This document shows, piece by piece, positions 36,621 to 60,870 of a stretch of 64,000 nt of DNA. This DNA comes from Longispora sp. K20-0274. GTDB lineage: Bacteria; Actinomycetota; Actinomycetes; Mycobacteriales; Micromonosporaceae. The notes below the pieces were generated by a model that worked only from the letters and a program-made list of their open reading frames with translations, ran no database searches and was not told the DNA's origin. How positions within the stretch are numbered: position 1 is the stretch's first letter; the number at the start of each line of letters is the position of its first letter. The position numbers and the translations under genes are program-made. Where the stretch lies: contig NZ_CP139447.1 of assembly GCF_047121295.1 (NCBI RefSeq), positions 3,298,665 to 3,362,664 on the forward strand. Direction: 5' to 3'.

Positions 36621-36656
36621 CCTCGGTCGGTCAGGACGCGTCCTGACCGACCGAGG
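36621..36656. terminator. Perfect 18-bp inverted repeat (CCTCGGTCGGTCAGGACG|CGTCCTGACCGACCGAGG) between the convergent P450 and terpene cyclase genes; candidate bidirectional terminator
   Basis: The palindrome is visible directly in the sequence, 55 nt after the P450 stop and 85 nt after the cyclase stop. Confidence 0.45.
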
Positions 36657-36740
36657 ACCCGCCCGGACCTGCCACGCGGGGCTGGACGGCGTCGATCATG
36701 CTGACGGCCCACGACGGCTGGGCAGAGGCCGCCGTGGGAG

Positions 36741-38165: not shown

Positions 38166-38523
38166 GGAGGACGCCTCTCGGGGGGACCAGAAGCTGTCAA
38201 CATCACGGTCTGTAGTGATCCGTTGTGGACCGGGTGAGTTTGCCACACTCAGCTTGTACCGAACAAGGCGCAAGTATGTTTACTGTCGGCATGGGTAGGG
38301 ATGCGCATCGTGCGACAGAGTGACCTAAGTCTCATTCTGTTCTTTGTCTGTCGCGGACCTGCCAGTTTACTCACGTCGATCATGTCCATGACCTTGTGCT
38401 GATACCGGATTACGCGTGGTCCATAATGGATCGCTGGGTGCGCGCCTTGGCTGATACTTGTCCCGCTGATATCGTCACCCCGGCTGATTAGCGCAATAAT
38501 GTCGACTTCGTCGGGATGGTGGG

Positions 38524-40845: not shown

Positions 40846-40885
40846 AACCACGCCCCGGGACCACCGGGGCCTCCTGGGGAGAGAC

Positions 40886-41305
40886 ATGGCACAGAAGACG
40901 AGTACGGTGCGGGATCTCGCCTGGCTGCTCGATGACCTGGTGGACCGGGTCGCGCATGCCCGGCAGGCGGCGGTGCTGTCGGCCGACGGCCTGCTGATCG
41001 CGGCGTCCAGTGGGCTCGACCGCGAGGACGCCGACCACCTCTCGGCCGTCGCGGCCGGGTTCCAGAGCCTGGCCCGGGGCGCCGGCCGGCACTTCGGTGG
41101 CGGCTCGGTGCGCCAGACCATCATCGAGATGGACTCGGCCTTCCTGTTCGTGATCGCCGCCGGGCACGGGGCGTGCCTGGCGGTCCTCGGGTCGGAGGAC
41201 GCCGACATCGGCCTCATCGCGTACGAGATGGCGATGCTCGTCGCCCGGGTCGGGCAGTACCTGGCCACCCCGTCGCGTACCTCCGTCATGGCTGCCGAGG
41301 TCTGA
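40886..41305 (+). CDS. cvnB: Roadblock/LC7 domain protein (CvnB)
   Basis: ~140 aa with the typical Roadblock pattern (...AAVLSADGLLIAAS...FLFVIAAGHGACLAVLG...). GGGGAGAG RBS lies upstream. Confidence 0.8.
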   Translation: MAQKTSTVRDLAWLLDDLVDRVAHARQAAVLSADGLLIAASSGLDREDADHLSAVAAGFQSLARGAGRHFGGGSVRQTIIEMDSAFLFVIAAGHGACLAVLGSEDADIGLIAYEMAMLVARVGQYLATPSRTSVMAAEV

Positions 41306-41307
41306 CC

Positions 41308-41661
41308 ATGAACGAATGGCTGGACGAGGATGCCGGGCCGGTCGTCCGCCCGTACGCCATGACCCGTGGCCGGACCCGCCCCTCCACGGGCGAGTTCGAC
41401 CTGATCGCCCTCGTCGTCTCCACCGGTGCGACGGCCGCCGGCCTCGAGCCGGAGCACACGGCGATCCTGGGCCTGTGCGACGCGCCCCTGTCGGTGGCCG
41501 AGATCTCGGCGCACCTGGACCTGCCGGTCGGCATCATCCGGGTGTTCCTGGGCGACCTGCTCACCGCCGGGCTGATCCAGGCCCGTGCGCCGCAGCCGGC
41601 GGCCGAGCTGCCGAGCAGGCGGACCCTCCTGGCGGTGATCGATGGTCTCCGTGCCCTCTGA
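41308..41661 (+). CDS. cvnC: DUF742 protein (CvnC)
   Basis: VRPYAMTRGRTRP...FDLIALV...LSVAEISAHLDLPVGIIRVFLGDLL is the characteristic DUF742 pattern. It starts 3 nt after the cvnB stop. Confidence 0.75.
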   Translation: MNEWLDEDAGPVVRPYAMTRGRTRPSTGEFDLIALVVSTGATAAGLEPEHTAILGLCDAPLSVAEISAHLDLPVGIIRVFLGDLLTAGLIQARAPQPAAELPSRRTLLAVIDGLRAL

Positions 41662-42223
41662 CGCCACCACGCTGCCCACCGCGATCAAGATCCTGGTCGC
41701 GGGCGGGTTCGGCGCGGGCAAGACGACCCTCGTCGGCGCGGTCAGCGAGATCAAGCCGCTGCGCACCGAGGAGACCATCACCGAGGAGAGCGTCGGCATC
41801 GACGACCTGTCCGGGGTGGAACGCAAGGAGACCACGACGGTCGCCATGGACTTCGGCCGGATCACGATCAACCCGGAGCTGGTGCTGTACCTGTTCGGCA
41901 CCCCCGGCCAGGACCGGTTCTGGTTCGTCTGGGACGAGCTCGCGCTCGGCGCCGTCGGTGCCGTCGTGCTGGCCGACACCCGCCGGCTGCCCGGCTGCTT
42001 CCCGTCGATCGACTACTTCGAACGCCGGGGCACCCCGTTCATCGTCGCCGTGAACTGCTTCGACGGCGCCGACCGGCACGACCCGGCCGAGGTGCGCGCG
42101 GCGCTGGACCTGGACCCGGAGGTGCCGGTCGTGCTGTGCGACGCCCGGGTCCGCGCGTCCAGCAAGGAGGTCCTGATCACGCTGGTCGAGCACGTGGTGA
42201 ACTCCACCCCGGCCTACGCGTAG
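41642..42223 (+). CDS. cvnD: ATP/GTP-binding protein, small Ras-like GTPase (CvnD)
   Basis: P-loop GGFGAGKTT, DTPGQ, and NCFD (NKxD-like) motifs. Overlaps the cvnC end. Confidence 0.8.
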   Translation: MVSVPSDATTLPTAIKILVAGGFGAGKTTLVGAVSEIKPLRTEETITEESVGIDDLSGVERKETTTVAMDFGRITINPELVLYLFGTPGQDRFWFVWDELALGAVGAVVLADTRRLPGCFPSIDYFERRGTPFIVAVNCFDGADRHDPAEVRAALDLDPEVPVVLCDARVRASSKEVLITLVEHVVNSTPAYA

Positions 42224-46564: not shown

Positions 46565-47518
46565 ATGTTGAGGACCATCGCAGTCGTGATCATGGACGGG
46601 GTCGCGCCGTTCGAGCTCGGCCTGTTGTGCGAGGTCTTCGGCGTCGACCGCTCCGACGACGGCGTGCCGAGGTTCGACTTCCGGGTGTGCGGCGAGCGGG
46701 CCGGCGAGCCGCTGCGCTCCGGGGTGGGCATGCTCGTCACCCCCGAGCACGGGCTCGACGCGCTCGCCGGCGCGGACCTGGTCGCGGTCCCCGCACACGG
46801 CATCATCGACGACTACCCGCCCGCCGTGCTGGCCGCGCTGCGCGCCGCCGCCGACCGGGGCACCACCCTGGTGTCGGTGTGCAGCGGGGTGTTCGTCCTG
46901 GGCGCCGCCGGCCTGCTCGACGACCGGCCGTGCACCACGCACTGGCGGCACGCGGAGGAGTTGGCCCGCCGGTTCCCGGCCGCCAAGGTCGACGCCGACG
47001 TGCTGTTCGTCGACGACGGCACCCTGGTCACCAGCGCCGGCACGGCGTCGGGCATCGACGCCTGCCTGCACGTCGTCCGCCGCGAGCTCGGCTCCGGGGT
47101 GGCCAACGCCATCGCCCGGCGGATGGTCGTCGCGCCGCAGCGCGAGGGCGGCCAGCGCCAGTTCGTGGAGCTGGCCATCCCCGAGTGCACCGGCGACAGC
47201 CTCCAGCCCCTGCTGGCCTGGATGCTGGAGCACCTGGACACCGAGCACTCCGTGGCCGACCTCGCGCACCGGGCGATGATGTCCGAGCGCACCTTCGCCC
47301 GCCGGTTCGCGGCCGAGACGGGCACCACCCCGGGGCGGTGGATGGCGTTGCAGCGGGTGCTGCACGCCCGCCGGCTGCTGGAGGAGACCCAGCTGTCCGT
47401 CGAGGAGGTCGCGCACGTCTGCGGCTTCGGCACCGCCGCGCTGCTCCGGCACCACTTCCACAAGATCGTCGGGGTGGCGCCGAAGGACTACCGGCGCTCG
47501 TTCGCCAGCACGCCGTAG
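46565..47518 (+). CDS. GlxA-family transcriptional regulator (DJ-1/PfpI domain + AraC-type HTH)
   Basis: N-terminal class I glutamine-amidotransferase-like domain (...VSVCSGVF...) and two C-terminal AraC HTH helices. Confidence 0.8.
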   Translation: MLRTIAVVIMDGVAPFELGLLCEVFGVDRSDDGVPRFDFRVCGERAGEPLRSGVGMLVTPEHGLDALAGADLVAVPAHGIIDDYPPAVLAALRAAADRGTTLVSVCSGVFVLGAAGLLDDRPCTTHWRHAEELARRFPAAKVDADVLFVDDGTLVTSAGTASGIDACLHVVRRELGSGVANAIARRMVVAPQREGGQRQFVELAIPECTGDSLQPLLAWMLEHLDTEHSVADLAHRAMMSERTFARRFAAETGTTPGRWMALQRVLHARRLLEETQLSVEEVAHVCGFGTAALLRHHFHKIVGVAPKDYRRSFASTP

Positions 47519-48534
47519 GCCACCAGGCAGTGCCAGAGCTGCTTGACGTACTGCAGGGTCTCCGCCCGGGTGCCCCACTCCGCCCACAGGTCCGGGTCCG
47601 TGACCACGGACCGGGCCGCGTGGCCGAGCACGGCGGCGTCGAGCACGCCGGACGGTGCGTGGTCGCCGAGGATCCGCGCGGCCAGGGGCCGCATCACCGG
47701 ACCCCGGAATTCGACGGGTACCTCGTCCGCCGTCAACGTGAAGCCGCCGTGCCACTCGACCCCGATCCCGCACCGGTCGGCCAGCACGACCAGGAGCTTC
47801 CCGGTCTCCGTGCCGTCGAACGACGGGTCGAGCACCAGTGCCTCGGCGTCGGCGGCCAGGTCGACGGGCCCGTGCACCTGGGCCTCCACGTAGTCGTCCA
47901 GCGCCCTGCCGGGCGCCTGCGCGGGGTCGACGCCGGACCGCGCGGGCAGGGCCAGCAGGTGGGCCACCGGGTCCACGCCCGGCACGCCCAGCATGGCCTC
48001 CGTCGCGCCCCCGACCAGCCCGGCCAGGACGTCCTCGAACGCGTCGATCGTGCCCAGGTCCGTCGGCCCCGTATGGCTGTCTCCGTGGCAGAACGTGGCC
48101 CGCTCCGACACCGCCGCCCGCAGCCGGACGTGGCACGAGCCGAACCGGGGCGCGGCCCCGTCCGGGTGCCCCATCAGGTCCAGCGCGCCGTAGGTCGGCC
48201 GGTCCGCCACGCGGACGCCCGGGGCCTGGTACGCCCCGCCGAACAGCCGCTCCTCCCAGCGGTCGCGGTCGCCCCCGGGATACGCCGTCAGGCCGCCGTT
48301 GGACACCCCGGTCTCGAACTGGCTGCGGTACCGGCCGTCAGACGCCAGCCCCTCGGCCACGGTCCGCCCGTCGGCGAGCAGCCGGTCGGGGTGGAAGTTG
48401 AGCGTGATCCGGCCGTGGGCGCGGACGGCTGCGAGCAGCGCGGCGGAGTCGGGGAGCGCGCGGTCGCGGCGGACGGTGGAGCGGACGTGGTCGAGGGCCG
48501 CGCGCTGGGCGGCGGTCAGTGGGGTGGGCTGCAC
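47488..48534 (-). CDS. DUF3626 domain protein (unknown function); last gene of the minus-strand lanthipeptide operon
   Basis: Conserved DUF3626-like core (...RITLNFHPDR..., GGAYQAPG...). A GTG at 48534 was chosen; an upstream ATG at 48699 would add a Pro-rich low-complexity extension. Confidence 0.5.
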   Translation of the reverse strand: MQPTPLTAAQRAALDHVRSTVRRDRALPDSAALLAAVRAHGRITLNFHPDRLLADGRTVAEGLASDGRYRSQFETGVSNGGLTAYPGGDRDRWEERLFGGAYQAPGVRVADRPTYGALDLMGHPDGAAPRFGSCHVRLRAAVSERATFCHGDSHTGPTDLGTIDAFEDVLAGLVGGATEAMLGVPGVDPVAHLLALPARSGVDPAQAPGRALDDYVEAQVHGPVDLAADAEALVLDPSFDGTETGKLLVVLADRCGIGVEWHGGFTLTADEVPVEFRGPVMRPLAARILGDHAPSGVLDAAVLGHAARSVVTDPDLWAEWGTRAETLQYVKQLWHCLVAYGVLANERR

Positions 48535-48631
48535 CCGGGAAGTATCGGCGCGGTCCGGTACCCCCGGCAATCGGTTTGTCCGCCGCCCCCCCGGAGCGGG
48601 CAGGGGCGGCCGCCCGCGGCCGGTGGACGGT

Positions 48632-49852
48632 TCAGGTGCCGGCGGTCGCGGGCCGGGCGACGCCGATGCGGACCAGGTCCGTGACCAGCTCGGTCGCATC
48701 GGCGGCGTCGAGTCCGGGCACGAGGTCGGCGGCACACCACGGTTCCGGGTCGTCGGCGGTCAGCAGTGCCGCAACGACGGCGGCGGCCGGCTCCTCGAAC
48801 TCGACGGTGAACGCGCCGAGGTGCAGCCGGAGCCCGCCGCCGTCGAGTGCGGTGACCCCGCAGACCGCTTCGGCGACCGTGCGCACCGGGGTGTCCTCGG
48901 CCAGGCCGGGCAGGATCGCCGCGGTGGCGGCCGGGGTGCGCGGTTCGAGGAAGAACCTCCGGTAGGCGTCGGCCATGACCTCGGCGTCGGCGGCCGGATC
49001 GAGGCTGTTCAGGGCCGCGCGGAGCTGCGCGACCGTCGTGGCGACGGCCCTGGCTCGGAGGCGGGGGTCGGCGCAGAATCCCCACGGGACCTCCGCGCGC
49101 AGCTCTTCGACGGCGTCGAGCCGGGCGAGGAGCTGTGTCGCGATCCAGTGGCCGGTCAGCGCGGGGAAGGCCAGACTCAGGTGCAGTGAGTGCTCGTCGG
49201 TGGCGAACCCGTTGTGCACCCAGCCGCGGGGGATCCACAGCGCGTCCCCGACACGGAGCACGGTCTCCAGTTGGGGGGTGCCGTGGCGCAGTCGGGCCCA
49301 ATCCGCGTCGGAGACCCGCTCGGCGCGGAACGGCTGGTGTTCCAGCGGATCGGTGAGCACCGGGGCGTGCACCTGCCACGTCTTACTGCCGGAGGTCTGC
49401 ACGATCAGGACGGCATGCGTGTCGTGGTGGTGGGCGAAGCCCTGGCTGCCGGCCGGGGTGAGGTAGGCGTTCGCGCCGACCGGCAGGCCGGTCTCCCAGC
49501 TCAGGCGGCGGCACAGGTCGCCCACCGGTGGCCAGGTTCGGTGGAGCGACTCCAGCACCACGGTCGAGCCGTCGCGCAACAGGGTGGTGAGCCGGGCCGG
49601 GCGGACCACGTCGGCGAATCCGGGCTGGACAGGTCTGCCCGACCAGGTGTAGGTGCCGCCGGGCACCCGTCGGCCGTCGGTGACCACGCTGACCATCTGC
49701 CGGTGCAGCGACCCGTGGTCGAGCAGCGCGTCGACGTCCGCGAGACAGAACGGCGGCGGGGCCGGCAGCGACCAGATGGCCGGACGCCGGGGCGGAGCGG
49801 CGAGAAAGCCGGCGGGATCGGGTACGAGCCCCGACAGGGCGGTCAGGCGCAT
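48632..49852 (-). CDS. JmjC/cupin-4 family 2-oxoglutarate/Fe(II)-type oxygenase (putative peptide hydroxylase)
   Basis: HxD...H iron facial triad candidates (FAHHHDTHAV ... WVHNGF) in a cupin fold. GAGGAG RBS lies 6 nt upstream. The start overlaps the MFS stop by 10 nt. Confidence 0.7.
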   Translation of the reverse strand: MRLTALSGLVPDPAGFLAAPPRRPAIWSLPAPPPFCLADVDALLDHGSLHRQMVSVVTDGRRVPGGTYTWSGRPVQPGFADVVRPARLTTLLRDGSTVVLESLHRTWPPVGDLCRRLSWETGLPVGANAYLTPAGSQGFAHHHDTHAVLIVQTSGSKTWQVHAPVLTDPLEHQPFRAERVSDADWARLRHGTPQLETVLRVGDALWIPRGWVHNGFATDEHSLHLSLAFPALTGHWIATQLLARLDAVEELRAEVPWGFCADPRLRARAVATTVAQLRAALNSLDPAADAEVMADAYRRFFLEPRTPAATAAILPGLAEDTPVRTVAEAVCGVTALDGGGLRLHLGAFTVEFEEPAAAVVAALLTADDPEPWCAADLVPGLDAADATELVTDLVRIGVARPATAGT

Positions 49853-51087
49853 CGTCTGCTCCTCAGGGGTTGTCCGGCGTGCGCCGGTGCGGGTGCGGTC
49901 AACTGGGCGCGCACGGGACCCACGGTGCAGAGCGCGGCGCACAGGCCCAGACAGGCCGCCATCGTGCCGTAGCCGGCCTGCGGGCCGAACCGTTGCAGCA
50001 GCCAGCCCATGGTGACGAAGGCGAACGGGTAGAGGACGGAGCCGATCAGGGTCATCGAACTCTGGGCGCGGCCCATCAGGTCGTCGGGCACCAGTCGGTA
50101 GGTGTGCGCGGTGAGCGCGATGACGAGGACCGGGCCCATCGCGGACAACAGGGCCAGCCCGACGGCCGTCGGGACCGGGTACGGCGCCACCGCCACGAAT
50201 GTCGTCACGGCGACGGCGCCGACGCCGCTGGTCAGCACGGCGGTGTACGGCCGGTCGGTGACCAGCCGGGGGGCCAGGGCCGCGCCGACCAGTGCTCCGA
50301 CGGAGACCGTGCCGGCCAGTACCCCGATGAGGGTCGGTGTGGTGCCGTGTGCCCGCAGCATCGGCACCAGGCCGAAGAACGCACCGGCGGTGGCGAAGTT
50401 CAGCACCGACGACCAGACGGTGACGACGCGCAGGAACGGCTGACCGGCGACGAACCGCAGGCCGGTGCCGATGTCGGCGAGCATGCCACCGGCCGAACGC
50501 GGCGCCCCGCCGCCGAGGTCGCCGCCGATCCCGGCCACCAGCACCGCGCACGCGACGAACGTCGCCACGTCGAGGACGAAGGGAGCCCACGGCCACAGCG
50601 CGAACAGCGCCCCGCCGATCGCCGGTCCGAGGAGTCCGGCGGCGTAGGTCCGGGTCTCGTTGAGCGACACCGCCCGGGTGAGCTGGTCCGACCCGACCAG
50701 CGCGCGGAGCGCCCCGCCCAGCGACGGGTTGTACACGGAACTGACGAGGCCGTCGAGACCCGCGATCAGGAGCAATGGCCACACCGCGCGCGCCCCGGTG
50801 GCCAGCATGACCGCCGGGCCGGCCCACAGCACCGCCTTGACGAGGTCGACCCGGATCATGACGGTGCGCCGGCGCCACCGGTCGGCGAGGACGCCGGCCG
50901 GCAGCCGGGCCACGTTCAGCACGACGAGCCTGACGGTGGCCAGACCACCGGCCGCGACCGCCGAGCCGGTCAGGTGCAGGAGCAACAGCGGCAGGCAGAT
51001 GTCGCTGATCCGGGAGCCGAGCGCCGACAGCGCCTGGCCCCACCAGAACCGACCGAAGTCGCGGTTGCCCCGCAGCAGGCCGGTCAT
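49843..51087 (-). CDS. MFS transporter (putative exporter)
   Basis: 12-TM major facilitator pattern. The ATG overlaps the stop of the upstream flavoprotein gene as ATGA. Confidence 0.75.
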   Translation of the reverse strand: MTGLLRGNRDFGRFWWGQALSALGSRISDICLPLLLLHLTGSAVAAGGLATVRLVVLNVARLPAGVLADRWRRRTVMIRVDLVKAVLWAGPAVMLATGARAVWPLLLIAGLDGLVSSVYNPSLGGALRALVGSDQLTRAVSLNETRTYAAGLLGPAIGGALFALWPWAPFVLDVATFVACAVLVAGIGGDLGGGAPRSAGGMLADIGTGLRFVAGQPFLRVVTVWSSVLNFATAGAFFGLVPMLRAHGTTPTLIGVLAGTVSVGALVGAALAPRLVTDRPYTAVLTSGVGAVAVTTFVAVAPYPVPTAVGLALLSAMGPVLVIALTAHTYRLVPDDLMGRAQSSMTLIGSVLYPFAFVTMGWLLQRFGPQAGYGTMAACLGLCAALCTVGPVRAQLTAPAPAHAGQPLRSRRCA

Positions 51088-51629
51088 CCGGCTGCCCGCC
51101 ACTGCGCCTCGACGATCTTCGCGGTGCCCGAGGGGCCGGGCATGGCATGGCTGTCGCCGAACTCGCCGTTCCACAGGGTCAGGACGGTGGTCGGTTCCGG
51201 GGAGACCACCACGACCCCGCGCTCCCTCAGGCCGCGCACGGCGGCCTGCGTGGTCCGGGCCCGCCACATCGTCGGGTGCATGTGGGGGAAGAGAACGACC
51301 GGGGCGGGCGTGGCCAGCACGGCCGTGAGCGCGGGCGAGTTGGCCAGCCCCAACGCGGCGGACACCACGAAATTGGCCGTGGCGGGGGCGACGACCAGCA
51401 GCCGGGCGGTGTGCGCGAACGCGACCGGGTTGAATCCGGTCGCGTTCGGCTCGACCACCTCGTCGGCCAGCAATCGGATAGCGGTCGGCTGCACGAACGT
51501 CAGGGCGGCCGAGGTGAGCAGGACGGTGGTGGGCACCGGGAGCCGCCGCCGCCAGGCGGTCAGGTGCGCGGGCAGTTCGAGGGCCGCGCTGGCGCCGGTG
51601 CACACCACCGCCAACCGGTCAGCGGGCAT
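51084..51629 (-). CDS. lanD: HFCD-family flavoprotein, peptidyl-cysteine decarboxylase (LanD/EpiD/MicD-like)
   Basis: Flavoprotein fold (LAVVCTGASAALELP..., VVAPATANFVVSAALGLANS, PAPVVLFPHMHPTMW) typical of homo-oligomeric flavin-containing Cys decarboxylases. The start overlaps the lanKC stop by 11 nt. Confidence 0.75.
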   Translation of the reverse strand: MPADRLAVVCTGASAALELPAHLTAWRRRLPVPTTVLLTSAALTFVQPTAIRLLADEVVEPNATGFNPVAFAHTARLLVVAPATANFVVSAALGLANSPALTAVLATPAPVVLFPHMHPTMWRARTTQAAVRGLRERGVVVVSPEPTTVLTLWNGEFGDSHAMPGPSGTAKIVEAQWRAAG

Positions 51630-54204
51630 GGCCGACCCCGACGCCCGACCAGCCGTACCGCAGGTCCAGGGTCCGACCGCCGGTGGCCAGGCGGCGCAGC
51701 GCCAGGGCGATGCCCGCCGAGCCGGTCGCGAGGTCGCAGCTCAGCCGCAGCAGCCCGTCGCCGGGGAACGCCACGCCGTCGGGTCCGGGTCGGCGCAGCG
51801 CCACGATCTGCCCGACGAGGCCGGCCAGAGCCTCGTCGACGGCCGGGTCGCCGGGCAGCACGTCCCGGCAGTCCAGCAGGAACTCCACCAGGCCGGTCAT
51901 CCCGGAGAACAGCCCCGGATTGACGGTGAACGGCATGGCCACCCCGCGCACGATCGAGCCGAGGGTCGTCGTGAGCCGTTCGTCGCCGGTGACCGCGAGC
52001 CGCCGGGCCACGGCCATGCCGACGCCCGCTCCGCCGCGCAGGAGGTACGGCTCGTACGCCGTGGCCCGCGCGTACGCGCCAAAGCCCAGGCCGCCGTTGC
52101 GCCGGAGCCGGCCGCGTTCGAGGTCGAAGGCCAGCGCCCGGCCGCCGAGTCGCAGCAGGCGGTCGTCGCCGGTCCGCGCGCCCAGTTCGGTGAGGAAGCC
52201 CGACACCCCGGACGATCCGTGCAGGTAGCCGAGCGGGTGCCGCGCGGTGTCCGTGGGCCACCACAGTCCCGTGCCGTCATCCTCGGCCTCGCCGGTCAGC
52301 CGGGCGGCGACCTCCGTGGCCAGGTCCGTCCAGGAGCCGTCGCCGGTCGCGTCGGCCGCCGCGAGCAGGCCGAGCCCGACGCCGGCGCGTCCCGTGGCCA
52401 CCCCGGCCGGTAGCTTGCCGTCGACCGCCCGGCGCGCCGCGTCGCGCAACAGTGCCGTGCCCCGGTCGGTCTCGCCGGCCTCGAGGATGGTGACGGCGAT
52501 GCCCGTGGCGCCGACGTACAGTCCGGCGGGAAGCGCGGGGTGCTCGTCGAGCCGGGCCAGCAGCCAGTCGAGTGCCACCGGATCGGCCACGCCATCGAGG
52601 AGCAGCAGGGCGCGCAGGACGCCGGCGGCTCCGTAGGCCACCGACAGCGGATTCGTGCGGAACAGCTCCGGGTGGGCGGGGAAGAGCCGGTCGGCGCGGT
52701 GGGGGGTCGCCGCCGATCGCAGGTGCCGGACGACCCCGTCGACCAGCTCGGGTGGCGTGGGCGCCGGGCCGTCGTCGGCGGCGACGCCGGGGGCACCGCG
52801 CTCCAGGACGGCCAGCAGGTCCCCGAGCGGGCGGTCCAGCGCGGCGGCGGTGTGCCGCAGGGTGCGCCCGAACACGCCCGGGTCCAGGCCCAGCAGCGCG
52901 TTGCGGGGAACGACGCAGGCCGCCTCGACGGCGGCGACGGAGAACCGCAGGTAGTCGTGGTCCACGCCCCATGCCGGTGAACCGACCTCCGGCGCGAACC
53001 CCAAGGTCCGGGGGTACCCGGCGGGGTCGTCTCCGGCGGGACGGCAAGCCTCGAAGTCGACCAGCCGCACCGTGTCGTCCTCGTCGACGAGGATGTTGGT
53101 GAGGGACAGGTCGCCGTGCACGACGCCATGGTCCGCGCAGGTCCGCACGGCGGCGGCGAGCTGCGTGAGCAGACCGTCGACCCTCCGGTTGTACGCGGCG
53201 ACCGTGTCGCGATCGGTGAATCCGCGCGCGAAGGGGTGGTGCCGCGCCAGCCACACCTGCAGAGTGATCCCGGGGACCAGGCTCTGCACGAGGAACGTGT
53301 GCTCCCACAGCCGGGTGAGCTCCACGGCCGCCGGCGCGACCCCGGTGCCGGCCAGGTCCAGCAGGAAGGCGTGCTCCCGGTGCAGCCGTTCGACCGCGTC
53401 GGACCCGTCGGGGGCGAACGCCGTGTGCGGCCGGGCCTCCTTGAGTACGACGTCGCGACCGTCGGGCCCGGTGGCCAGGTACACCCCGCCGGCTGTGGAG
53501 TGGCGCAGGACGGACCGGACCCGGTACCTGGTCAGCAGGTCACCACCGGTCGGTTCCGTCCCCGGCGGGAAGGGGTCCTCGGTGACCCACGGCGGCAGCG
53601 TGAACCGGGGGGTGCGCGCATCCGTCCACGCGGTCCCGTCCGGGCCGGTCACCGTGGCCGTGACGTGCCCGTCGGCATCGACGCCGGCCGGCCGGCGCAC
53701 CGTGCCGTACCGGTACTGCACCGTGCCGCTGCCCGGGTAGCGCCGGTCGGTCAGGATGTGCGGCCCCGCGAACCCGTCGAGGCGGTGGGCCAGCCGGTCG
53801 GCGAGCTCGCGGGCGTGCCCGACCGAGGTGGGGTACACCGTCACGGCCTTTCCCGCCCCGCCCCTCGACCACCAGCGGCTGAGCTGGGCGACGGCGAGCT
53901 CCGTGGACCGCACGCACTTGAAGCTGAACGGGCCCTCGAGGTACTCGTCGACGACCGCGTCCACCACGGCCAGCACGTCGGCGGGCCGGCAGGACACGTG
54001 CAGTTTCCAGCCGTGCGCCGGCAACTGTGACATGGGCTGGGCCAGGCACCGGACCCAGATCCCCATGGCCGAGACCGCGCCGGTGTCACCGAGGCGGTCG
54101 CGCACCAGGTCACGCAGGTCGGCGGTGTCGGGCCCGTGGTCGATCCGCTCGTAGTACAGCGGATCGGCGATCGCGTAGGCCCGCAACGATTCGATGATGG
54201 ACAC
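51619..54204 (-). CDS. lanKC: Class III lanthipeptide synthetase LanKC (N-terminal lyase, central Ser/Thr kinase, C-terminal zinc-ligand-free LanC-like cyclase)
   Basis: Lyase-domain N-terminus (...GWKLHVSCRP...) and a kinase core (VVHGDLSLTNILV ... VDFE). The C-terminal cyclase domain has GYLHGSSG and NPGLFSGMTG where LanC/LanM enzymes carry WCHG and CHG, so the Cys-Cys-His zinc site is absent. A GTG at 54204 is preceded by GGAGGA. The track shows a 1294-aa ORF whose first ~430 aa are antisense low-complexity artefact. Confidence 0.85.
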   Translation of the reverse strand: MSIIESLRAYAIADPLYYERIDHGPDTADLRDLVRDRLGDTGAVSAMGIWVRCLAQPMSQLPAHGWKLHVSCRPADVLAVVDAVVDEYLEGPFSFKCVRSTELAVAQLSRWWSRGGAGKAVTVYPTSVGHARELADRLAHRLDGFAGPHILTDRRYPGSGTVQYRYGTVRRPAGVDADGHVTATVTGPDGTAWTDARTPRFTLPPWVTEDPFPPGTEPTGGDLLTRYRVRSVLRHSTAGGVYLATGPDGRDVVLKEARPHTAFAPDGSDAVERLHREHAFLLDLAGTGVAPAAVELTRLWEHTFLVQSLVPGITLQVWLARHHPFARGFTDRDTVAAYNRRVDGLLTQLAAAVRTCADHGVVHGDLSLTNILVDEDDTVRLVDFEACRPAGDDPAGYPRTLGFAPEVGSPAWGVDHDYLRFSVAAVEAACVVPRNALLGLDPGVFGRTLRHTAAALDRPLGDLLAVLERGAPGVAADDGPAPTPPELVDGVVRHLRSAATPHRADRLFPAHPELFRTNPLSVAYGAAGVLRALLLLDGVADPVALDWLLARLDEHPALPAGLYVGATGIAVTILEAGETDRGTALLRDAARRAVDGKLPAGVATGRAGVGLGLLAAADATGDGSWTDLATEVAARLTGEAEDDGTGLWWPTDTARHPLGYLHGSSGVSGFLTELGARTGDDRLLRLGGRALAFDLERGRLRRNGGLGFGAYARATAYEPYLLRGGAGVGMAVARRLAVTGDERLTTTLGSIVRGVAMPFTVNPGLFSGMTGLVEFLLDCRDVLPGDPAVDEALAGLVGQIVALRRPGPDGVAFPGDGLLRLSCDLATGSAGIALALRRLATGGRTLDLRYGWSGVGVGHAR

Positions 54205-54221
54205 GCTTCCTCCCCTGGGGT

Positions 54222-54246
54222 GGGGCCCGGAGCGGATCCGGGCCCC
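54222..54246 (-). promoter_or_regulatory. Stem-loop (10-bp GC stem GGGGCCCGGA/TCCGGGCCCC, 5-nt loop) between precursor gene and lanKC; candidate attenuator/processing site
   Basis: Perfect inverted repeat seen in the 55-nt spacer between the precursor stop and the lanKC start. No U-tract follows it. Confidence 0.4.
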
Positions 54247-54259
54247 GTGAGCGGTCGGA

Positions 54260-54358
54260 CTAGCAGCCGTAGCTGACGCCGCTGCCGTCGGTGTCGGGCG
54301 AGACGTACTCGGCCGTCTCGTCGTTCTCGATGACCTGCAGGTCCAGAACCTCTGCCAT
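54260..54358 (-). CDS. lanA: Class III lanthipeptide precursor peptide, 32 aa: MAEVLDLQVIENDETAEYVSPDTDGSGVSYGC
   Basis: This ORF is absent from the supplied track because it is shorter than 60 aa. AAGGAG RBS lies 6 nt upstream of the ATG. The leader carries the class III (I/L)(L/F)(D/E)LQ recognition motif as VLDLQ. The core ends in S-x-x-S-x-x-C with a C-terminal Cys, a labionin/avionin-type motif. It lies immediately upstream of lanKC on the same strand. Confidence 0.75.
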   Translation of the reverse strand: MAEVLDLQVIENDETAEYVSPDTDGSGVSYGC

Positions 54359-54550: not shown

Positions 54551-57500
54551 ATGCGCGCCGGCCGGACAGCGGGCATGCTGTCGTGCATGGACGGTGACGG
54601 GCGCGCGGGGACGGAGCGGTGCTGGTGGGCGCGCGGGCTGACCCTGACCGAACGGCCGACGCCGGCCCCCGGGCGGGTCGTCGCCGGGGACGCCGACCGG
54701 GCGGCCCGCAGGCTGGCCCGGTGGCGCACGGTGTTCCCGACCGGCGAGGCGTTCGGTGCCCGGCTCGCCGCGGCCGGCATCGACGAGAATGTCCTGGCGC
54801 TGCTGCTGGCCGAGGACGCCACCTCGCTCGCCGGCCGGGTCGACCGGCCCGACTGGGCCGGCTTCGCCGAACGGGCCGCCCAGCTGGCCCGGCCACCGAC
54901 CGGGCGGGAATTCACCTGGGAGGACGGGTTCGGCGCCATCGTCGGCCCGTTCGCGGAGCTGGCGGCCCGTGAACTGCTGGCCGCCGAGCCGGGACTGCGC
55001 GACCTGCGGGCCGGCTTCACCGCCCAGACCAGGGGGCTGCTGACGCGCCTGGCCCGCCGGACACTGGTCCTGGAGCTCAACGTGTACCGGGTGTCCGGCC
55101 GCCTCGACGGGGCCATGCCCCGTGACCGGTTCGCCAGCTTCGTGCGCCAGCTGTGCACCAGGGAGGGACTCACCGCGCTGATCGAGGAGTACGCGGTGCT
55201 GGCCCGGCTGCTGGCCCAGGCGTGCCTGCAGAACGTGACCGCCTGGGTGGAGCTGTACGGAAGGTTCACCCGGGACCGCCCCGCCATCGTCGCCGACCTG
55301 CTGGGCGCCGTCGAACCAGGTCCGTTGGTGGAGATCGCCTCCGGCGCCGGTGACCGGCACCGGGGCGGCCGGTCCGTGGCGGTGCTGAGGTTCGCCGACG
55401 GCGCGCGGGTCGTGTACAAACCCCGACCGGTGACCGCGCACGCCCTGTTCAACTGTGCCGTGCGCTGGCTCAACGCGCGGATGCCGGGGCCGGCCCTCCC
55501 CACGCTGGCTCTGCTGTCGCGACCGTCCCACGGCTGGGTGGAGTTCGCGGCCCACGCGCCGTGCCGGGACCGCGACGGGGTCGACCGGTTCTACCGCAGG
55601 CAGGGCGCGACCCTGGCCCTGCTGCACGCTCTGGACGCCACCGACATCCACCACGAGAACCTCGTGGCCCGTGGCGACGAGCCGGTGCTGGTGGACCTCG
55701 AGACCCTGCTGCATCCGACCCTGCCGGTCCCCGGACCGCGCGCCACGGACCCGGCGGCCCGGGCGATGGACTCCTCGGTGTACCGAACGGCCCTGCTGTC
55801 CCTGCCGGTGGTCGGCGACCACGGCATGATCGACCTGTCCGGCCTCGGCGCGGACAAGGGGGCTTTGAGCCCGCTGGACGGGGTCGGCTGGGGCGCGCCC
55901 GGTACCGACGAGATGCGGCTGGTCCGCCGGCAGGAGACCTTCGAGGGCTCGGACAACCGTCCCCGGCTCGACGGACGCGACGCCGATCCGGCGGCGTACA
56001 CCGCCAGCCTGCTCTCCGGTTTCCGCGACGCGTACCAGGCCATCGCCTCGGGTCGGGCCGAACTCGTCGGTCCCGACGGGCCGTTGGCCGCATCCGGGGG
56101 TGCCGACCTGCGGGTGGTGGTCCGACCCACCCGGGTGTACGCGACGCTGCTCGACGAGTCGACCCACCCCGACGTGCTGCGCGACGCCCTCGACCGGGAC
56201 CGGCTGCTGGACACACTGTGGGCGGACTCGACCGGCGCCGCGCTGTGGTGGCAGGTGGCCGGCGCGGAGATCGCCGGCCTGTGGGCGGGCGACATTCCGC
56301 TGTTCGACACCAGGTCGGACTCCCTCGCCCTGGCTTCGGGCGGGTTCACCCTCGACGGGGCACTCGACGCCACCGGCGTGCGCCGGGTCTCCGCCAAGCT
56401 CGCCGCGCTGGGCGGGCCGGACCAGTACGACCAGGAATGGATCATCCAGGCCGCGCTCGCCACCCGCGCACCGCTGCCCGAGCACCGGCCGGGGCGGTCC
56501 GGCGCCCATCCGCACGCGACGACGGTGCCCGACCGCGACCGGCTTCTCGCCTCGGCCTGCGGCATCGCCGACCAGTTGGTCGCGATGGCCTTCGAGGACG
56601 ACCACCACGCGAACTGGCTGGGCCTGGAGCCCGTCGACGACCGGCACTGGATGGTGCTGCCTCAGGGCGCGGGCCTGGCCCACGGGTACTGTGGCACCGC
56701 GCTCCTGCTCGCCCAGCTGGCGGGGATCACCGGGACCGCCCGGTACGCGCGGCTCGCCCGCAGGGCGGTGTGCCCGATTCCGAACCTGCTCGACCACCTC
56801 GCCCGGCACCCCGAACAGGCCGCGGCGGTCGGCTGCGGCGGATTCGCCGGCTTCGGCGGCATCGCCTACGCCCTCAGCCACCTGGCGGCGCTCCTGGACG
56901 ACGGGGAGGTCGCCGGCTGGGTGCCGGGCGCGGTCCGGCTGGTCGCCGGGGCCGCCCACGGCAGCGGGCCGGGCGTGCTGACCGGGGCCGCCGGCGGGGT
57001 GGCCGCCATGCTCGCCGTGCACGCGACAACGGGTTCGGACCTGGCCTGGGACGCGGCGCGGACCTGTGCCGACGCGGTACTGGCAGCCGATCCGGCCGGG
57101 TTGCCCGCCGGATTCGGCACCGGACTCGCGGGGATGGGCTGGGCCCTCGCCCGGTTCGGGGCCTCCGGCGGTGGCACCCGCTACGCCGACGCCGGCCGCG
57201 CGCTGCTGGCCGCGAGCCGTCCGGCGGCGGACGATCCCAGCTGGTGCCACGGCCTGCCAGGCCTGGCGCTCGCCCTGGCCGACCTGGGGGACACACCGGC
57301 GGGCGGGACCGTGGACCGGGCGGTCGGCGCCGTGGCGGCCCGGCCGCCGCTGGACGACCACAGCCTGTGCCACGGCGAGCTCGGCGGCCTGGAGCTGCTG
57401 GTGGAGGCCGCCGCCGGCGGGCACCACGCCGCCAGGGCCGGGCGGATCCCCCGGGCGGGCCTGCTGCTGGCGGCCCTGGACCGCGTCGGCCCTCAGTGCG

Positions 57501-57673
57501 CCACCCCGGGCCTGGTGCCCAGCCCGGGTCTGCTCACCGGGCTGGCCGGGATCGGCTACGGACTGCTGCGGCTGGGCTTCCCCGACCGGACGCCCAGCGT
57601 CCTCCTGCTCAGACCACCCCACGCGCCCGCGACTCGGCCGGGCGCGGTGTCCCTACGACAAGGAGCGACATGA
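54551..57673 (+). CDS. lanM: Class II lanthipeptide synthetase LanM (N-terminal DUF4135 dehydratase domain + C-terminal LanC-like cyclase with intact zinc ligands)
   Basis: Dehydratase/kinase-like motifs DIHHENLVARGDEPVLVDLETLL, and cyclase motifs LAHGYCG, SWCHGLPG, SLCHGELGG (Cys-Cys-His zinc site). Start uncertain; ATG 54551, 54575 and 54587 are all possible. Confidence 0.8.
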   Translation: MRAGRTAGMLSCMDGDGRAGTERCWWARGLTLTERPTPAPGRVVAGDADRAARRLARWRTVFPTGEAFGARLAAAGIDENVLALLLAEDATSLAGRVDRPDWAGFAERAAQLARPPTGREFTWEDGFGAIVGPFAELAARELLAAEPGLRDLRAGFTAQTRGLLTRLARRTLVLELNVYRVSGRLDGAMPRDRFASFVRQLCTREGLTALIEEYAVLARLLAQACLQNVTAWVELYGRFTRDRPAIVADLLGAVEPGPLVEIASGAGDRHRGGRSVAVLRFADGARVVYKPRPVTAHALFNCAVRWLNARMPGPALPTLALLSRPSHGWVEFAAHAPCRDRDGVDRFYRRQGATLALLHALDATDIHHENLVARGDEPVLVDLETLLHPTLPVPGPRATDPAARAMDSSVYRTALLSLPVVGDHGMIDLSGLGADKGALSPLDGVGWGAPGTDEMRLVRRQETFEGSDNRPRLDGRDADPAAYTASLLSGFRDAYQAIASGRAELVGPDGPLAASGGADLRVVVRPTRVYATLLDESTHPDVLRDALDRDRLLDTLWADSTGAALWWQVAGAEIAGLWAGDIPLFDTRSDSLALASGGFTLDGALDATGVRRVSAKLAALGGPDQYDQEWIIQAALATRAPLPEHRPGRSGAHPHATTVPDRDRLLASACGIADQLVAMAFEDDHHANWLGLEPVDDRHWMVLPQGAGLAHGYCGTALLLAQLAGITGTARYARLARRAVCPIPNLLDHLARHPEQAAAVGCGGFAGFGGIAYALSHLAALLDDGEVAGWVPGAVRLVAGAAHGSGPGVLTGAAGGVAAMLAVHATTGSDLAWDAARTCADAVLAADPAGLPAGFGTGLAGMGWALARFGASGGGTRYADAGRALLAASRPAADDPSWCHGLPGLALALADLGDTPAGGTVDRAVGAVAARPPLDDHSLCHGELGGLELLVEAAAGGHHAARAGRIPRAGLLLAALDRVGPQCATPGLVPSPGLLTGLAGIGYGLLRLGFPDRTPSVLLLRPPHAPATRPGAVSLRQGAT

Positions 57674-57867
57674 CCGACACAGATCTGATCAGGTCCTGGA
57701 AGGACCCGGAGTCCCGCGACGAGCCGGCCGCCGACCATCCGGTGGGGGAGATCCGACCCAGGATCGACCTGCGCGCGGGCTCCCGAGTCCTGGCGCTGGT
57801 CGGCATGGCCGGCGTCCTGTTCGCGTCGCTGCCGGGCACCGAGACGACGACCTCGCTGACCGGGTGA
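57670..57867 (+). CDS. 65-aa peptide with class II (LanM-type) leader motif but no cysteine: MTDTDLIRSWKDPESRDEPAADHPVGEIRPRIDLRAGSRVLALVGMAGVLFASLPGTETTTSLTG
   Basis: The ATG overlaps the lanM stop (ATGA) and has AAGGAG 5 nt upstream. The N-terminus carries the (I/L)xxWK(D/N)PxxR leader motif seen in mersacidin/lichenicidin-alpha-type LanA peptides. The C-terminal half is hydrophobic with a TETTTS tail and contains no Cys. Confidence 0.5.
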   Translation: MTDTDLIRSWKDPESRDEPAADHPVGEIRPRIDLRAGSRVLALVGMAGVLFASLPGTETTTSLTG

Positions 57868-57942
57868 GCCGCCGCCGGCCTCCGGGGCCCGCCCGGGCGG
57901 CGGCCCATAGATACTGATCATCATGGACGGTAATCTCGGACC

Positions 57943-60870
57943 ATGCAGCTGACGTCTCCGGTGCTCATCGGCCGCAGTTCCGAGATCGCCGCGCTGGAGG
58001 CCGGGATCGAGGCCGCCCGCACCGGTTCCGGGCGGGCGGCCTTCCTGGTCGGGGAGGCGGGGGTCGGCAAGTCCCGGCTGGCCGCCGAGTGCGCCTACCG
58101 GGCGTTCGCCGCCGGCATGCCCGTGCTGCGCGGCCGGTGCAGTTCCACCGGGGTGCGGATGCCGCTGCGTCCCATCACGGAGGCGCTACTCTCCCTGTTC
58201 CGCACCGGAGGTCCGCCGAGGAACCCGGAACTGGAACCGTACCGGCCCGCCCTCGCCCGGCTCGTGCCCGACTGGCGGGACAAGGGGGCGCCGGACGAGC
58301 CCGGGGCTTTGATCGAGACCGCCGAGGCGGTGCTGCGCCTGCTCGCGGTGGTCGGCGCGGACGGCGGCTGCGTTCTCGTGCTGGAGGACCTGCACGACGC
58401 CGACGCCGAGACACTGGCGGTGCTGGAGTATCTGGTCGACAACGTCGCCGGCCTGCGCGTGTTCCTGCTCGGCGCCCTGCGCTCGGCACCCGGCCCGGCC
58501 CTCGACCTGGCCAGGGCCACCGGGCGACGGCGGACGGCGGTCCTCGCCGAACTCGCCGGGCTGACCGATGAGCAGGTGCGACAGATGGCGGCGGCGTGCC
58601 TGTCCGTCCCCGTCGACGAGCTGTCCGGTCCGGTCGCCGACCGGCTCGTCCGGTACGGCGACGGGAACCCGTTCGTCGTCGAGGAACTCCTCGGCGGCAT
58701 GGTCGCGGCGAACCTGCTGCGCCCCTCGACCGACGGGTGGCGGGTGTTCGGCGACCTGACCCTGGACGTTCCGACCACCGTGGTGCGCAGCGTGACCCTG
58801 CGCGTCGACGGCCTCGGCCCGCAGGGCGCCGAGCTGTTGCACGTCGCCGCCGTGCTCGGCCGGCGGTTCACGCTGTCGGAACTGCGGACCGTGACCGGCC
58901 TCGACGACCGCGGCCTGCTGGGGCACCTGCGCGCCGGGGTCAACGCCCAACTGGTATCGCCGAGCGGACCCGCTCCCGACTGCTACGAGTTCCGCCATGC
59001 GCTCACCGTCGAGGCGCTGCTCAGCTCGATCGGGCCCGCGGAGAGGGCGGCCATCGCCCGGCGGGCCGCCGACGCGCTCGAGGCCGCGCACCCCGGGCAG
59101 CCCGGCGACTGGTGTCAACGACTCGCCGTGCTGCGCCAGTCCGCCGGCGATCCGGTGGCGGCCGGCCTGCTGCTCGTCCGTTCCGGCCGGGCGGCGCTCG
59201 CCTCCGGCGCGGTCGCGTCGGCGGTGGACCTGCTCGAACGGGCCCAGGGCCTCGCCCCGGAGATGGCCCCCGAGCAGCGGGCCGACGTCCTCGAGGCGTT
59301 GTTGTACGCGCTCGCCGAGGCCGGCCAGCTCGACCGGGCCCAGACGGTGCTGGCCACGGCACCCGTCGCCGGGCCTGGAGCCCTCGACCGGGTCAGGGGC
59401 GCCGCGCTGCGGGCCCGGCTGGCCTGGGTGGCGGTGACCGCGGGGCGGATGGCCGACGCCGCGATCCACCTCGCGGTGGCCCGGCAGCTGGCCGGACCCG
59501 GACCCGGGCCGCAGGTCGCCGCCGCCATCGACATCGTCGCGGCCCGGCTGACGTTCTCGGGCAGGGACGGCACCCGGGGGCTCGACCGGGTCGCGGAGGC
59601 CGAGGAACTGGCCCGCCGGGCCGCCGATGCCGCGGAGTCGGCCGGGCTGCCCGTGGTGGCCTGCCAGTCCTGGCAGTTCCTCGCCCTGCTCGCCCGGCGG
59701 CGTGGCATCGACGCCTCCGACAGCTGTGTCCATCGGCTGCTCGCGGTGGCGGAGGAGCACTCGCTACCGGTCTGGTACGCCAACGGCCTGCTCTGGCTGG
59801 GGATCAACGAGTTCCTCCGCACGGCGGAATCCAGCCACCTCGAGCGGGCCCGTCAGGCCACGCTCGGTCTCGGACGGATCGCGCTGACCCACACGGCCGA
59901 GGCGACGCTCGCGATGCACGCCGTGTTCCGGGCCGACTTCGCGACGGCCCGCCAACTCGCCGACTCCTGTGCCGACGCCAGCGCCCGGCTGCGCGACGTG
60001 GACAACCACCAGTACGCGGTGCTGGCCCGGGCCGCGCTCGCCGCGCACCAGGGCCGGCGCCGGGAGATGGACACCGAACTGGCCGAGTTCCGCGACTGGC
60101 AGGGCGAACAGTCGATGCTCATGCCGTTGGTCTTCGGCCGGTGCAGGGCCGTCTGCGCGCTCCTGGAGGAGAAACGGGGCGAGGCGATGGCCGAGCTCGA
60201 CCGCGGGGCTGCCTGGGAGGACCAGCACCCGAACGTGTTCCACCTCGACGGCAGGTACGGGCTCCGCCCGCTGCTCGGTGTCCTCGCCGGCCGGGTGACG
60301 GCGTCCGAGCACGCGAGCCTGGCCGCCGAGCCCGCCGCCCAGCTGCGGTGGAACCGGCAGTTCGTCCTGCTCGCGAGGGCGGTGCTGCTCGGCACGGCCG
60401 GCGACGCGTCGGCGGCGGCGGAGGCGGTCGTCGAGGCGCGCGCGGAGGCGGCGCCGTTTCCGACGACCCATCACCTCGGACTGCGGTTGGTCGCGGAGGC
60501 CGCGCTCGCCGACGGTTGGGGCGAACCGGTCGCCTGGCTCCGCACGGCCGAGGGGTACTTCCACGGTGCGGGAATCCCCGCGGTGGCCGGGGCGTGCCGC
60601 GCGTTGCTCCGGCGGGCCGGCGCGAACGTGGGCCAGCGCCGGGCCGGGATCGAGGAGGTTCCCGTCGCGGTCCGCAGACAGGGGATCACCCTCAGGGAGT
60701 ACCAGGTCCTGCAACTTCTCGTGGCCCGGCCCAGCAACCAGGACATCGCCCAGCGGTTGTTCATCTCTCCCCGGACGGTGGAGAAGCACATCGCCAGCCT
60801 GATCGCGAAGACCCACCGCCCCGACCGCGCGGCACTGAGCGAGTACGCGGCGGACCTGTCGGCGACCTGA
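57943..60870 (+). CDS. LAL-family transcriptional regulator (N-terminal AAA ATPase, TPR-like middle, C-terminal LuxR HTH)
   Basis: Walker A GEAGVGKS, Walker B VLVLEDLHDAD, and a C-terminal LuxR HTH (LREYQVLQLLVARPSNQDIAQRLFISPRTVEKHIASL). Confidence 0.85.
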   Translation: MQLTSPVLIGRSSEIAALEAGIEAARTGSGRAAFLVGEAGVGKSRLAAECAYRAFAAGMPVLRGRCSSTGVRMPLRPITEALLSLFRTGGPPRNPELEPYRPALARLVPDWRDKGAPDEPGALIETAEAVLRLLAVVGADGGCVLVLEDLHDADAETLAVLEYLVDNVAGLRVFLLGALRSAPGPALDLARATGRRRTAVLAELAGLTDEQVRQMAAACLSVPVDELSGPVADRLVRYGDGNPFVVEELLGGMVAANLLRPSTDGWRVFGDLTLDVPTTVVRSVTLRVDGLGPQGAELLHVAAVLGRRFTLSELRTVTGLDDRGLLGHLRAGVNAQLVSPSGPAPDCYEFRHALTVEALLSSIGPAERAAIARRAADALEAAHPGQPGDWCQRLAVLRQSAGDPVAAGLLLVRSGRAALASGAVASAVDLLERAQGLAPEMAPEQRADVLEALLYALAEAGQLDRAQTVLATAPVAGPGALDRVRGAALRARLAWVAVTAGRMADAAIHLAVARQLAGPGPGPQVAAAIDIVAARLTFSGRDGTRGLDRVAEAEELARRAADAAESAGLPVVACQSWQFLALLARRRGIDASDSCVHRLLAVAEEHSLPVWYANGLLWLGINEFLRTAESSHLERARQATLGLGRIALTHTAEATLAMHAVFRADFATARQLADSCADASARLRDVDNHQYAVLARAALAAHQGRRREMDTELAEFRDWQGEQSMLMPLVFGRCRAVCALLEEKRGEAMAELDRGAAWEDQHPNVFHLDGRYGLRPLLGVLAGRVTASEHASLAAEPAAQLRWNRQFVLLARAVLLGTAGDASAAAEAVVEARAEAAPFPTTHHLGLRLVAEAALADGWGEPVAWLRTAEGYFHGAGIPAVAGACRALLRRAGANVGQRRAGIEEVPVAVRRQGITLREYQVLQLLVARPSNQDIAQRLFISPRTVEKHIASLIAKTHRPDRAALSEYAADLSAT

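Follow-up and report, generated by a model that had tools for sequence, protein, structure and literature searches.

Avionin, a labionin fused to a C-terminal aminovinyl-cysteine (AviCys), is the pharmacophore-bearing scaffold of the lipolanthines active against methicillin-resistant Staphylococcus aureus, and in the literature that we searched it always occurred within lipidated peptides, so far as part of lipid-peptide hybrids only. Whether bacteria also build this scaffold on a peptide that carries no lipid is the question raised by a five-gene operon, lanA-lanKC-lanD-MFS-JmjC, in Longispora sp. K20-0274, located in a 64-kb stretch of ~74% GC content (contig NZ_CP139447.1, positions 3,298,665 to 3,362,664 of the forward strand; hereafter the window). 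A precursor, a LanKC and a LanD are sufficient to form avionin in vitro, as established for the MicKC/MicD, FlaKC/FlaD and BicKC/BicD pairs (PMC7540663), and a preliminary description of this DNA was right to invoke these three genes as a sufficient set. The reading that we favour, with a probability of roughly 0.55, is that the Longispora operon would direct the synthesis of a non-lipidated, probably hydroxylated, avionin-containing class III lanthipeptide.

Reading frames in this GC-rich window were chosen by frame-by-frame inspection of the GC content at the three codon positions (GC1, GC2 and GC3). The precursor gene lanA (54260..54358, 32 aa), preceded by GAAGGAG and matching the NCBIfam model lanthi_III_b weakly, is followed on the minus strand by lanKC (51619..54204, 861 aa, with a GTG start after GGAGG) and by a lanD-like gene for an HFCD flavoprotein (51084..51629, 181 aa; PF02441 at 1.4e-13, with a PATANF motif). 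These three were read at exactly the coordinates given in the preliminary description (51084-54358), as was the 11-nt overlap between the end of lanKC and the lanD ATG (ATGCCCGCTGA), which is visible directly in the sequence. The unit was described at that time as one of three genes and, while all three are present, it comprises five, given that the next two genes are co-operonic and co-conserved with them: the lanD stop and the start of a gene encoding an MFS transporter of the MFS_3/EntS-like type (49843..51087, 414 aa, a probable exporter by Pfam, NCBIfam and synteny) share an ATGA overlap, and the latter gene overlaps by 10 nt that of a JmjC, ribosomal-oxygenase (ROX)-type, Fe(II)/2-oxoglutarate (2OG) oxygenase (48632..49852, 406 aa; PF08007 at 5e-23 and alignment to NO66), both again on the minus strand. 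The five genes thus form one operon and a self-contained class III lanthipeptide unit. The gene that comes next downstream of the JmjC gene, on the same minus strand (47488..48735), encodes a DUF3626 protein and was considered as a sixth member; it was dropped, being absent from all orthologous loci, and it is for this reason probably unrelated to the lanthipeptide cluster. The DUF3626 family includes the Salmonella effector SopF.

The synthetase assigns the locus to class III. LanKC has the RamC_N (6e-45), Pkinase and LANC_like domains in Pfam, scores 688.7 bits against the NCBIfam model lanthi_synth_III (cut-off 575), which it covers from position 3 to position 832 of 833, remains below the cut-off of the class IV model (434 vs 650), and finds LanKC structures as its best matches in PDB. 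Its cyclase motifs read YLHG and LFSG where those of the neighbouring LanM read WCHG and LCHG, so that LanKC lacks the Cys-Cys-His zinc ligands; the comparison made in the preliminary description was therefore sound. The precursor agrees with this assignment. Its sequence (MAEVLDLQVIENDETAEYVSPDTDGSGVSYGC, 32 aa, read from 54358 to 54260) combines a leader helix motif formed by M1, V4, L7 and I10 (VLDLQ) with the core TDGSGVSYGC, whose C-terminal end S26-x-x-S29-x-x-C32 corresponds to the SxxSxxC arrangement defined as the avionin-encoding motif, just as the leader corresponds to the helix defined as (theta-xx)theta-xx-theta-xx-theta (PMC7540663). Both traits, by which class III precursors are recognized, are kept in the orthologues, and by every criterion that we tested the locus is a class III lanthipeptide cluster.

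A small open reading frame of this kind could arise by chance, and its conservation is what argues for a gene. The 32-aa frame was found again 5' of lanKC in six orthologous loci, with the conserved leader MAEVLDLQ and the core TDGSG[VI]S[YF]xC (orthologous precursors: MAEVLDLQILSEENTTSPVLHTDGSGVSYNC, MAEVLDLQILSEDEVAGPVLHTDGSGVSYNC, MAELLDLQILTDEVAVDVEIIHTDGSGVSYNC and MHEVLELQVVETED(A/T)EF(L/M)PE(A/Q)PITDGSG(I/V)SFTC), and because leader and core recur in this way it is not a chance frame; conservation is concentrated in residues 1-10 and in the last ten residues, the middle being variable. The 55-nt spacer between lanA and lanKC (54205..54259, minus strand) contains a 10-bp GC hairpin (GGGGCCCGGA/TCCGGGCCCC; minimum free energy -34.6 kcal/mol, z = -2.0), after which comes GGAGG, the lanKC ribosome-binding site, and a hairpin directly 3' of the lanA stop occurs also at 6 related loci, the sequences differing between loci. 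Scans of the window for consensus promoters and terminators in this 74% GC DNA gave no match, and the hairpin escaped the terminator scan because it has no T-run; it is probably an attenuator or a processing stem.

The whole operon, not only its precursor, is conserved. A search of species-representative genomes with a profile of the flavoprotein subfamily led to six loci, and the order lanA-lanKC-HFCD-MFS-JmjC is kept at 55-78% protein identity (tblastn) in four Kribbella species, an Actinocatenispora metagenome-assembled genome and Micromonospora rosaria; the same order was found in Micromonospora sp. SH-82. The cassette sits in different surroundings, flanked in K. sandramycini by an aminotransferase/aldehyde dehydrogenase pair and by DUF1844-infC-SpoU-pheS, and in M. 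rosaria by a LAL regulator and by sensor-kinase and septum-formation genes, which indicates that the five genes travel as a conserved mobile unit. Among the LanKC homologues two tiers can be told apart, a first with 57-66% identity, encoded in the five-gene cassette, and a second with 41-46% identity, forming a sister family of four loci in Actinocrispum wychmicini, Kitasatospora sp. NBC_00374, Streptomyces sp. CRN 30 and Streptomyces sp. A012304. The sister family has the order lanA-lanKC-Flavoprotein-MFS, without JmjC and PKS (polyketide synthase) genes in all four loci, and its precursors are longer, with one extra Cys. Across the related LanKC loci the HFCD gene is translationally coupled to lanKC in 12 of 12 and the MFS gene directly follows lanD equally often (12/12). 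With the operon family present in at least four genera as well as in soil metagenomes, and the wider sister family in Streptomyces, Kitasatospora and Actinocrispum, this spread points to a natural-product family and not to a one-off.

From the observed gene content and order, translational coupling, motifs, conservation and absence of lipid genes, we infer by analogy with characterized systems each chemical step, the hydroxylation site and the mature N-terminus of the product. LanKC would bind the 32-aa precursor at its amphipathic leader helix, phosphorylate Ser26 and Ser29 and eliminate the phosphates to leave dehydroalanines (Dha). The flavoprotein would oxidatively decarboxylate Cys32 to an enethiolate, which would add to Dha29, and the resulting enolate would then add to Dha26, closing the bicyclic avionin. 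One residue of the conserved core would be hydroxylated by the JmjC oxygenase, unlinked generic peptidases would trim the leader and the MFS pump would export the product, with no lipid attached in Longispora or in Kribbella. The predicted monoisotopic mass of TDGSGVSYGC with avionin is 862.328 Da, or 878.323 Da with one hydroxyl group.

Several observations weigh against this scheme, and most of them concern the flavoprotein. At the position of the catalytic histidine (His67 in EpiD, His75 in MrsD, His85 in TvaF) the Longispora protein has Pro68, exactly 14 residues before the PA(S/T)AN motif in pairwise and profile alignments, where the subfamily profile (lnPvef) is aligned to LNHINI in EpiD and to LNNINI in the crystallized H67N mutant; the EpiD H67N and TvaF H85A mutants are inactive (PMC8549060; bioRxiv 10.1101/2020.02.13.947028). 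Moreover, the Longispora sequence PHMHPTMW (residues 116-122) has a His in place of EpiD Asn117 of the PxMNxxMW motif, and the protein passes none of the curated decarboxylase models of NCBIfam (20.7 bits vs 215 for CypD, 66.7 vs 219.7 for CoaBC). The active-site comparison itself covered EpiD, MrsD, TvaF and CypD. To these points must be added that the cluster lacks a gene for a leader peptidase, that on the right-hand side of lanA the search for lipid genes is limited to the 9.6 kb within the window, and that a PlsC-type acyltransferase gene (PF01553) directly follows the JmjC gene in M. rosaria and Micromonospora sp. SH-82 (L006:12967-13893, L090:15715-16470).

The features of the flavoprotein could mean that a protein without the histidine does not decarboxylate at all, acting instead as an obligatory allosteric partner of LanKC or catalyzing another flavin reaction such as sulfoxidation, in which case the product would be an ordinary class III peptide with labionin or lanthionine and a free C-terminal carboxylate. 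Beyond the proline, the dead His mutants of EpiD and TvaF and the failed curated models, this possibility draws on the finding that LanDs activate their partner LanKC, FlaKC being inactive without FlaD (PMC7540663). The family, however, does not look degenerate: an alignment-based search gave 852 relatives, Asn-Pro is present in 116 of the 131 inspected, with PATAN and PxMNxxMW intact, and the full or near invariance of Asn-Pro, PATAN and PxM(N)xxMW (PATANF, present in Longispora, being invariant in the subfamily) speaks for an active site that is constrained rather than decayed. The Asn117 position is Asn in 99/131 and His in 9/131 of these relatives, and two of the nine with His are CoaC-like proteins of actinomycetes (PAMHTEMW). 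The subfamily profile matches MrsD at 3.5e-29 and EpiD at 4e-21, and CypD is a proven peptide-Cys decarboxylase without the His, having Asn80 there (bioRxiv 10.1101/2020.02.13.947028). Furthermore, Cys is the exact C-terminal residue in all 15 precursors that we read beside Asn-Pro flavoproteins (11 LanKC-linked and 4 of a second type, described below), and relatives of the lipolanthines that lack lanD have residues after the Cys (PMC7540663). Since CypD also lacks the His and the neighbouring precursors end in Cys, the flavoprotein likely decarboxylates the C-terminal Cys of the precursor, and we consider a peptide with an intact carboxylate unlikely. The term HFCD decarboxylase used in the preliminary description stands as regards an HFCD flavoprotein coupled to lanKC; decarboxylase is a predicted function, the enzyme being non-canonical, with Pro at the His67 position and no curated decarboxylase model passed.

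Even if Cys32 is decarboxylated, cyclization might stop after the thioether to Dha29, with protonation of the enolate, so that an AviCys without the C-C bridge would form, with Dha26 left free, or with another outcome of the lanthionine type. Class III enzymes are able to yield lanthionine or labionin from the same type of motif, and the Longispora LanKC is only ~31-38% identical to the generic class III LanKCs with which it was compared. On the other side, the SxxSxxC spacing is strict at the C-terminus of 11/11 precursors of the operon and sister families, and avionin was "always" obtained with the three LanKC/LanD pairs that were tried on it (PMC7540663), which makes a product without the C-C bridge improbable.

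The avionin peptide could also be lipidated from a distance. In that case it would be N-acylated after leader removal by enzymes encoded elsewhere, for instance the primary fatty acid synthase (FAS) with an unlinked acyltransferase of the GNAT or PlsC type, and the locus would be a cryptic lipolanthine cluster. Every avionin peptide described so far is lipidated, the octapeptide frame xSxxSxxC fits the lipolanthine cores, and the Micromonospora orthologues carry the PF01553 acyltransferase right behind the JmjC gene. Set against this, Pfam scans of essentially all gene-like frames of the 64-kb window detected no ketosynthase (KS), acyltransferase (AT), acyl or peptidyl carrier protein (ACP/PCP), AMP-binding or condensation domain, and what they did detect were regulators and transporters, enzymes of primary metabolism, a P450, a protein resembling terpene cyclases and a conservon. 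The absence of PKS, FAS and acyl-ligase genes from the window, asserted in the preliminary description, was therefore confirmed. The same domains were absent from the Pfam-scanned flanks of K. sandramycini and M. rosaria; of the 10-kb flanks in Kribbella, those of K. sandramycini were scanned by Pfam and those of the other loci were judged by frame size and synteny, and the housekeeping genes that flank the Kribbella cassettes make a hidden adjacent PKS unlikely. Thus no acyltransferase, KS, ACP or ligase gene occurs in the operon, in the 51 kb on one side and 10 kb on the other in Longispora, or in the 10-kb orthologue flanks that we examined, and the PKS, FAS or NRPS (non-ribosomal peptide synthetase) genes with a coupling enzyme that characterize lipolanthine clusters are missing at the Longispora locus. 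In addition, upstream of the octapeptide the core is conserved over two further residues (TDG), and it is a hydroxylase that has been added to the operon, not lipid genes. Acylation by distant enzymes appears quite unlikely for Longispora on these grounds. The qualifier non-lipidated may nevertheless hold only in part: lipid genes are lacking in the window and in the examined Kribbella flanks, but the two Micromonospora orthologues add the PlsC-type acyltransferase, so that it may not apply to the family as a whole, and the Micromonospora branch may acylate its peptide with acyl donors from primary metabolism, without a dedicated PKS.

Two sets of genes were considered as lipid genes and rejected. 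The only related matches in the window, those of a thioesterase of type II (PF00975, 8.6e-48) and of a GNAT protein at 1.7-3.4 kb, lie ~48 kb away from the operon, behind housekeeping genes. The KASIII, ACP, HAD, FAD-monooxygenase and AvrD genes of A. wychmicini (L081:15177-22565) are read from the other strand, at a distance of 3-10 kb past the operon, and are absent beside the other members. As observations in their own right, the thioesterase and GNAT genes at the left edge (1696-3457) hint at an NRPS or PKS cluster that may lie right outside the window on its left, and the KASIII/ACP/AvrD set of A. wychmicini resembles a butenolide or syringolide-type pathway.

The non-lipidated avionin peptide would probably also carry a hydroxyl group. 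The JmjC protein is closest to NO66 and MINA53, histidyl hydroxylases of the ribosomal-oxygenase branch (1e-16 to 1e-12), and its HxD...H triad and 2OG-binding Lys are in place, with HHD, K and H aligned to HYD, K and H of human NO66; it is predicted, from these similarities, to be a peptide hydroxylase. Its gene is present in all first-tier loci and in none of the second tier, and an upstream Thr-Asp-Gly and an aromatic residue at position -2 are unique to the cores of the first tier, the family that contains JmjC; as these residues are specific to that family, the target of hydroxylation is probably Asp24, Tyr30 or Thr23. We met no description of a JmjC-type hydroxylase acting on lanthipeptides in the literature, in which no search was aimed at that point. 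The nearest counterparts are TsaJ and ThoJ of the thioamitides, likewise Fe(II)/2OG oxygenases that hydroxylate an AviCys-containing macrocycle of a peptide that is made ribosomally and then modified post-translationally (RiPP; PMC8153245); TsaJ, however, is of the PhyH type (PF05721) whereas the Longispora enzyme is of the JmjC/ROX type (PF08007), and the two count as analogues and, strictly taken, not as homologues.

Compared with the described families, the operon is closest in its core to the lipolanthines (microvionin, nocavionin; the Mic, Fla and Bic systems) and the goadvionins, with which it shares a LanKC of class III and a co-acting HFCD LanD next to it, the SxxSxxC precursor end, a theta-xx-theta-xx-theta leader helix and an exporter gene (PMC7540663). 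Unlike these, it has no PKS, FAS, NRPS, fatty-acyl-AMP ligase or GNAT genes, it adds a JmjC oxygenase, and its conserved core extends over 10 residues instead of 8; lipolanthine subtypes I-IV are themselves defined by which PKS/NRPS genes they contain and by whether lanD is present. With labyrinthopeptins and plain class III systems (LabKC, CurKC, ThurKC) it has in common the three-domain zinc-free synthetase, the Ser-Ser-Cys arrangement, an ILELQ-like leader and the lack of a dedicated protease, but the clusters of the latter have no flavoprotein and their products retain the C-terminal carboxylate, whereas here an HFCD protein is coupled to lanKC. EpiD, MrsD and CypD share with the Longispora flavoprotein the HFCD fold, the PA(S/T)AN and PxMNxxMW motifs at family level and partner peptides that end in Cys, and a difference is Asn66-His67 in EpiD, with CypD having Asn at the His position, versus Asn-Pro in Longispora.

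Some of the class III clusters were noted in a large survey to contain flavoproteins (PMC7268733), and a non-lipidated avionin peptide was not described in the searchable literature (queries on LanKC with LanD and on class III with Cys decarboxylase), subscription journals being outside the scope; within the same limits, we met nothing that contradicts the novelty attributed to the combination in the preliminary description. None of the named lipolanthine strains was among the LanKC or HFCD matches, a LanKC gene of Actinosynnema lay at the end of its contig, and searches of plasmids returned generic LanKCs and unrelated flavoprotein contexts only. If the proposed product is correct, the five-gene operon would be a minimal and easily expressed system for the bicyclic scaffold without a lipid, and would show how LanKC and LanD cooperate and whether an HFCD protein without the textbook His can decarboxylate Cys. 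It is a genome-mining lead with one biochemical puzzle, the His-less LanD, and not a new principle.

Asn-Pro flavoproteins were found in three contexts, i.e., beside LanKC, in a gene set with TPR and flavin-reductase proteins, and with a cupin and an MFS protein on a Rhodococcus plasmid. The TPR-type clusters of Streptomyces, Micromonospora and Lentzea (L083, L084, L085 and L089, at ~5700-10600 in each) have the order precursor, ~390-aa protein without Pfam match, ~710-aa TPR protein and flavin reductase, with a divergent flavoprotein and a LuxR/LAL regulator usually present; their precursors, of 25-27 residues, begin MKKI(T/S)VRK..IKLT... (e.g., MKKITVRKTGSIKLTSPASYILTVC) and all 4 that we read end in Cys. 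This is apparently a RiPP-like kind of cluster without a characterized member. The Rhodococcus sp. ZPP trio of cupin, Asn-Pro-family flavoprotein and MFS genes lies on the linear, 926-kb plasmid pRZP2 (L087:14336-16762), with no LanKC annotated nearby in a plasmid gene table that is incomplete and from which a pseudogene or small frame may be missing.

Divergent from the lanA operon, the window carries on its plus strand a LanM gene (54551..57673, zinc ligands intact), a gene for a 65-aa peptide (57670..57867) coupled to it by an ATGA overlap at 57670, and a LAL-family regulator (AAA_16 and LuxR/GerE domains in Pfam; 57943..60870), a probable cluster activator. Orthologues of the regulator stand beside the cassette or related ones at L004, L006, L081, L090, L091 and L092, and in three of the four sister-family loci, Kitasatospora being the exception; the adjacent LAL protein probably controls the lanA-lanKC-lanD-MFS-JmjC operon. 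The 65-aa peptide, which contains no Cys, is acidic at its N-terminus and has a hydrophobic stretch and a tail rich in Ser and Thr, and more generally the ~65-aa peptides show an acidic N-terminus, a stretch rich in Arg, a hydrophobic segment resembling a transmembrane one and a short Ser/Thr-rich tail, with Cys lacking in 3 of 5, the one of the window included. The trio of LanM, peptide and regulator recurs in the window (54551-60870), in K. deserti, A. wychmicini and Streptomyces sp. A012304 and at the TPR-type locus L089 (L004:861-6935, L081:3386-9644, L089:10623-16749, L092:193-6828), that is, next to two different types of RiPP cluster that contain an Asn-Pro flavoprotein. The pairing with LanM is odd because a peptide without Cys cannot form a thioether; the module may serve in regulation or, alternatively, dehydration may be all that happens to the peptide. 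A bolder view, which we regard as doubtful, would see in the Asn-Pro flavoproteins a large and mechanistically distinct actinomycete family that modifies the C-terminal Cys of peptides without the catalytic His and serves at least two RiPP architectures (LanKC-linked and TPR/flavin-reductase-linked), the LanKC branch leading to free hydroxylated avionin peptides; the partner module of LanM, Cys-less membrane-anchor-like peptide and LAL regulator could then be a sensing or regulatory device and not a second antibiotic pathway.

Elsewhere in the window, a conservon-like operon (38500-42223, plus strand) encodes a NIT-domain sensor histidine kinase, a Roadblock/LC7 protein, a small frame and an ATP_bind_1 GTPase. 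In the region 34111-38279 a cytochrome P450 gene (~35.2-36.56 kb, plus strand) adjoins that of a squalene-hopene-cyclase-like protein (36741-38279, minus strand), and the pair could represent a small terpenoid cluster.

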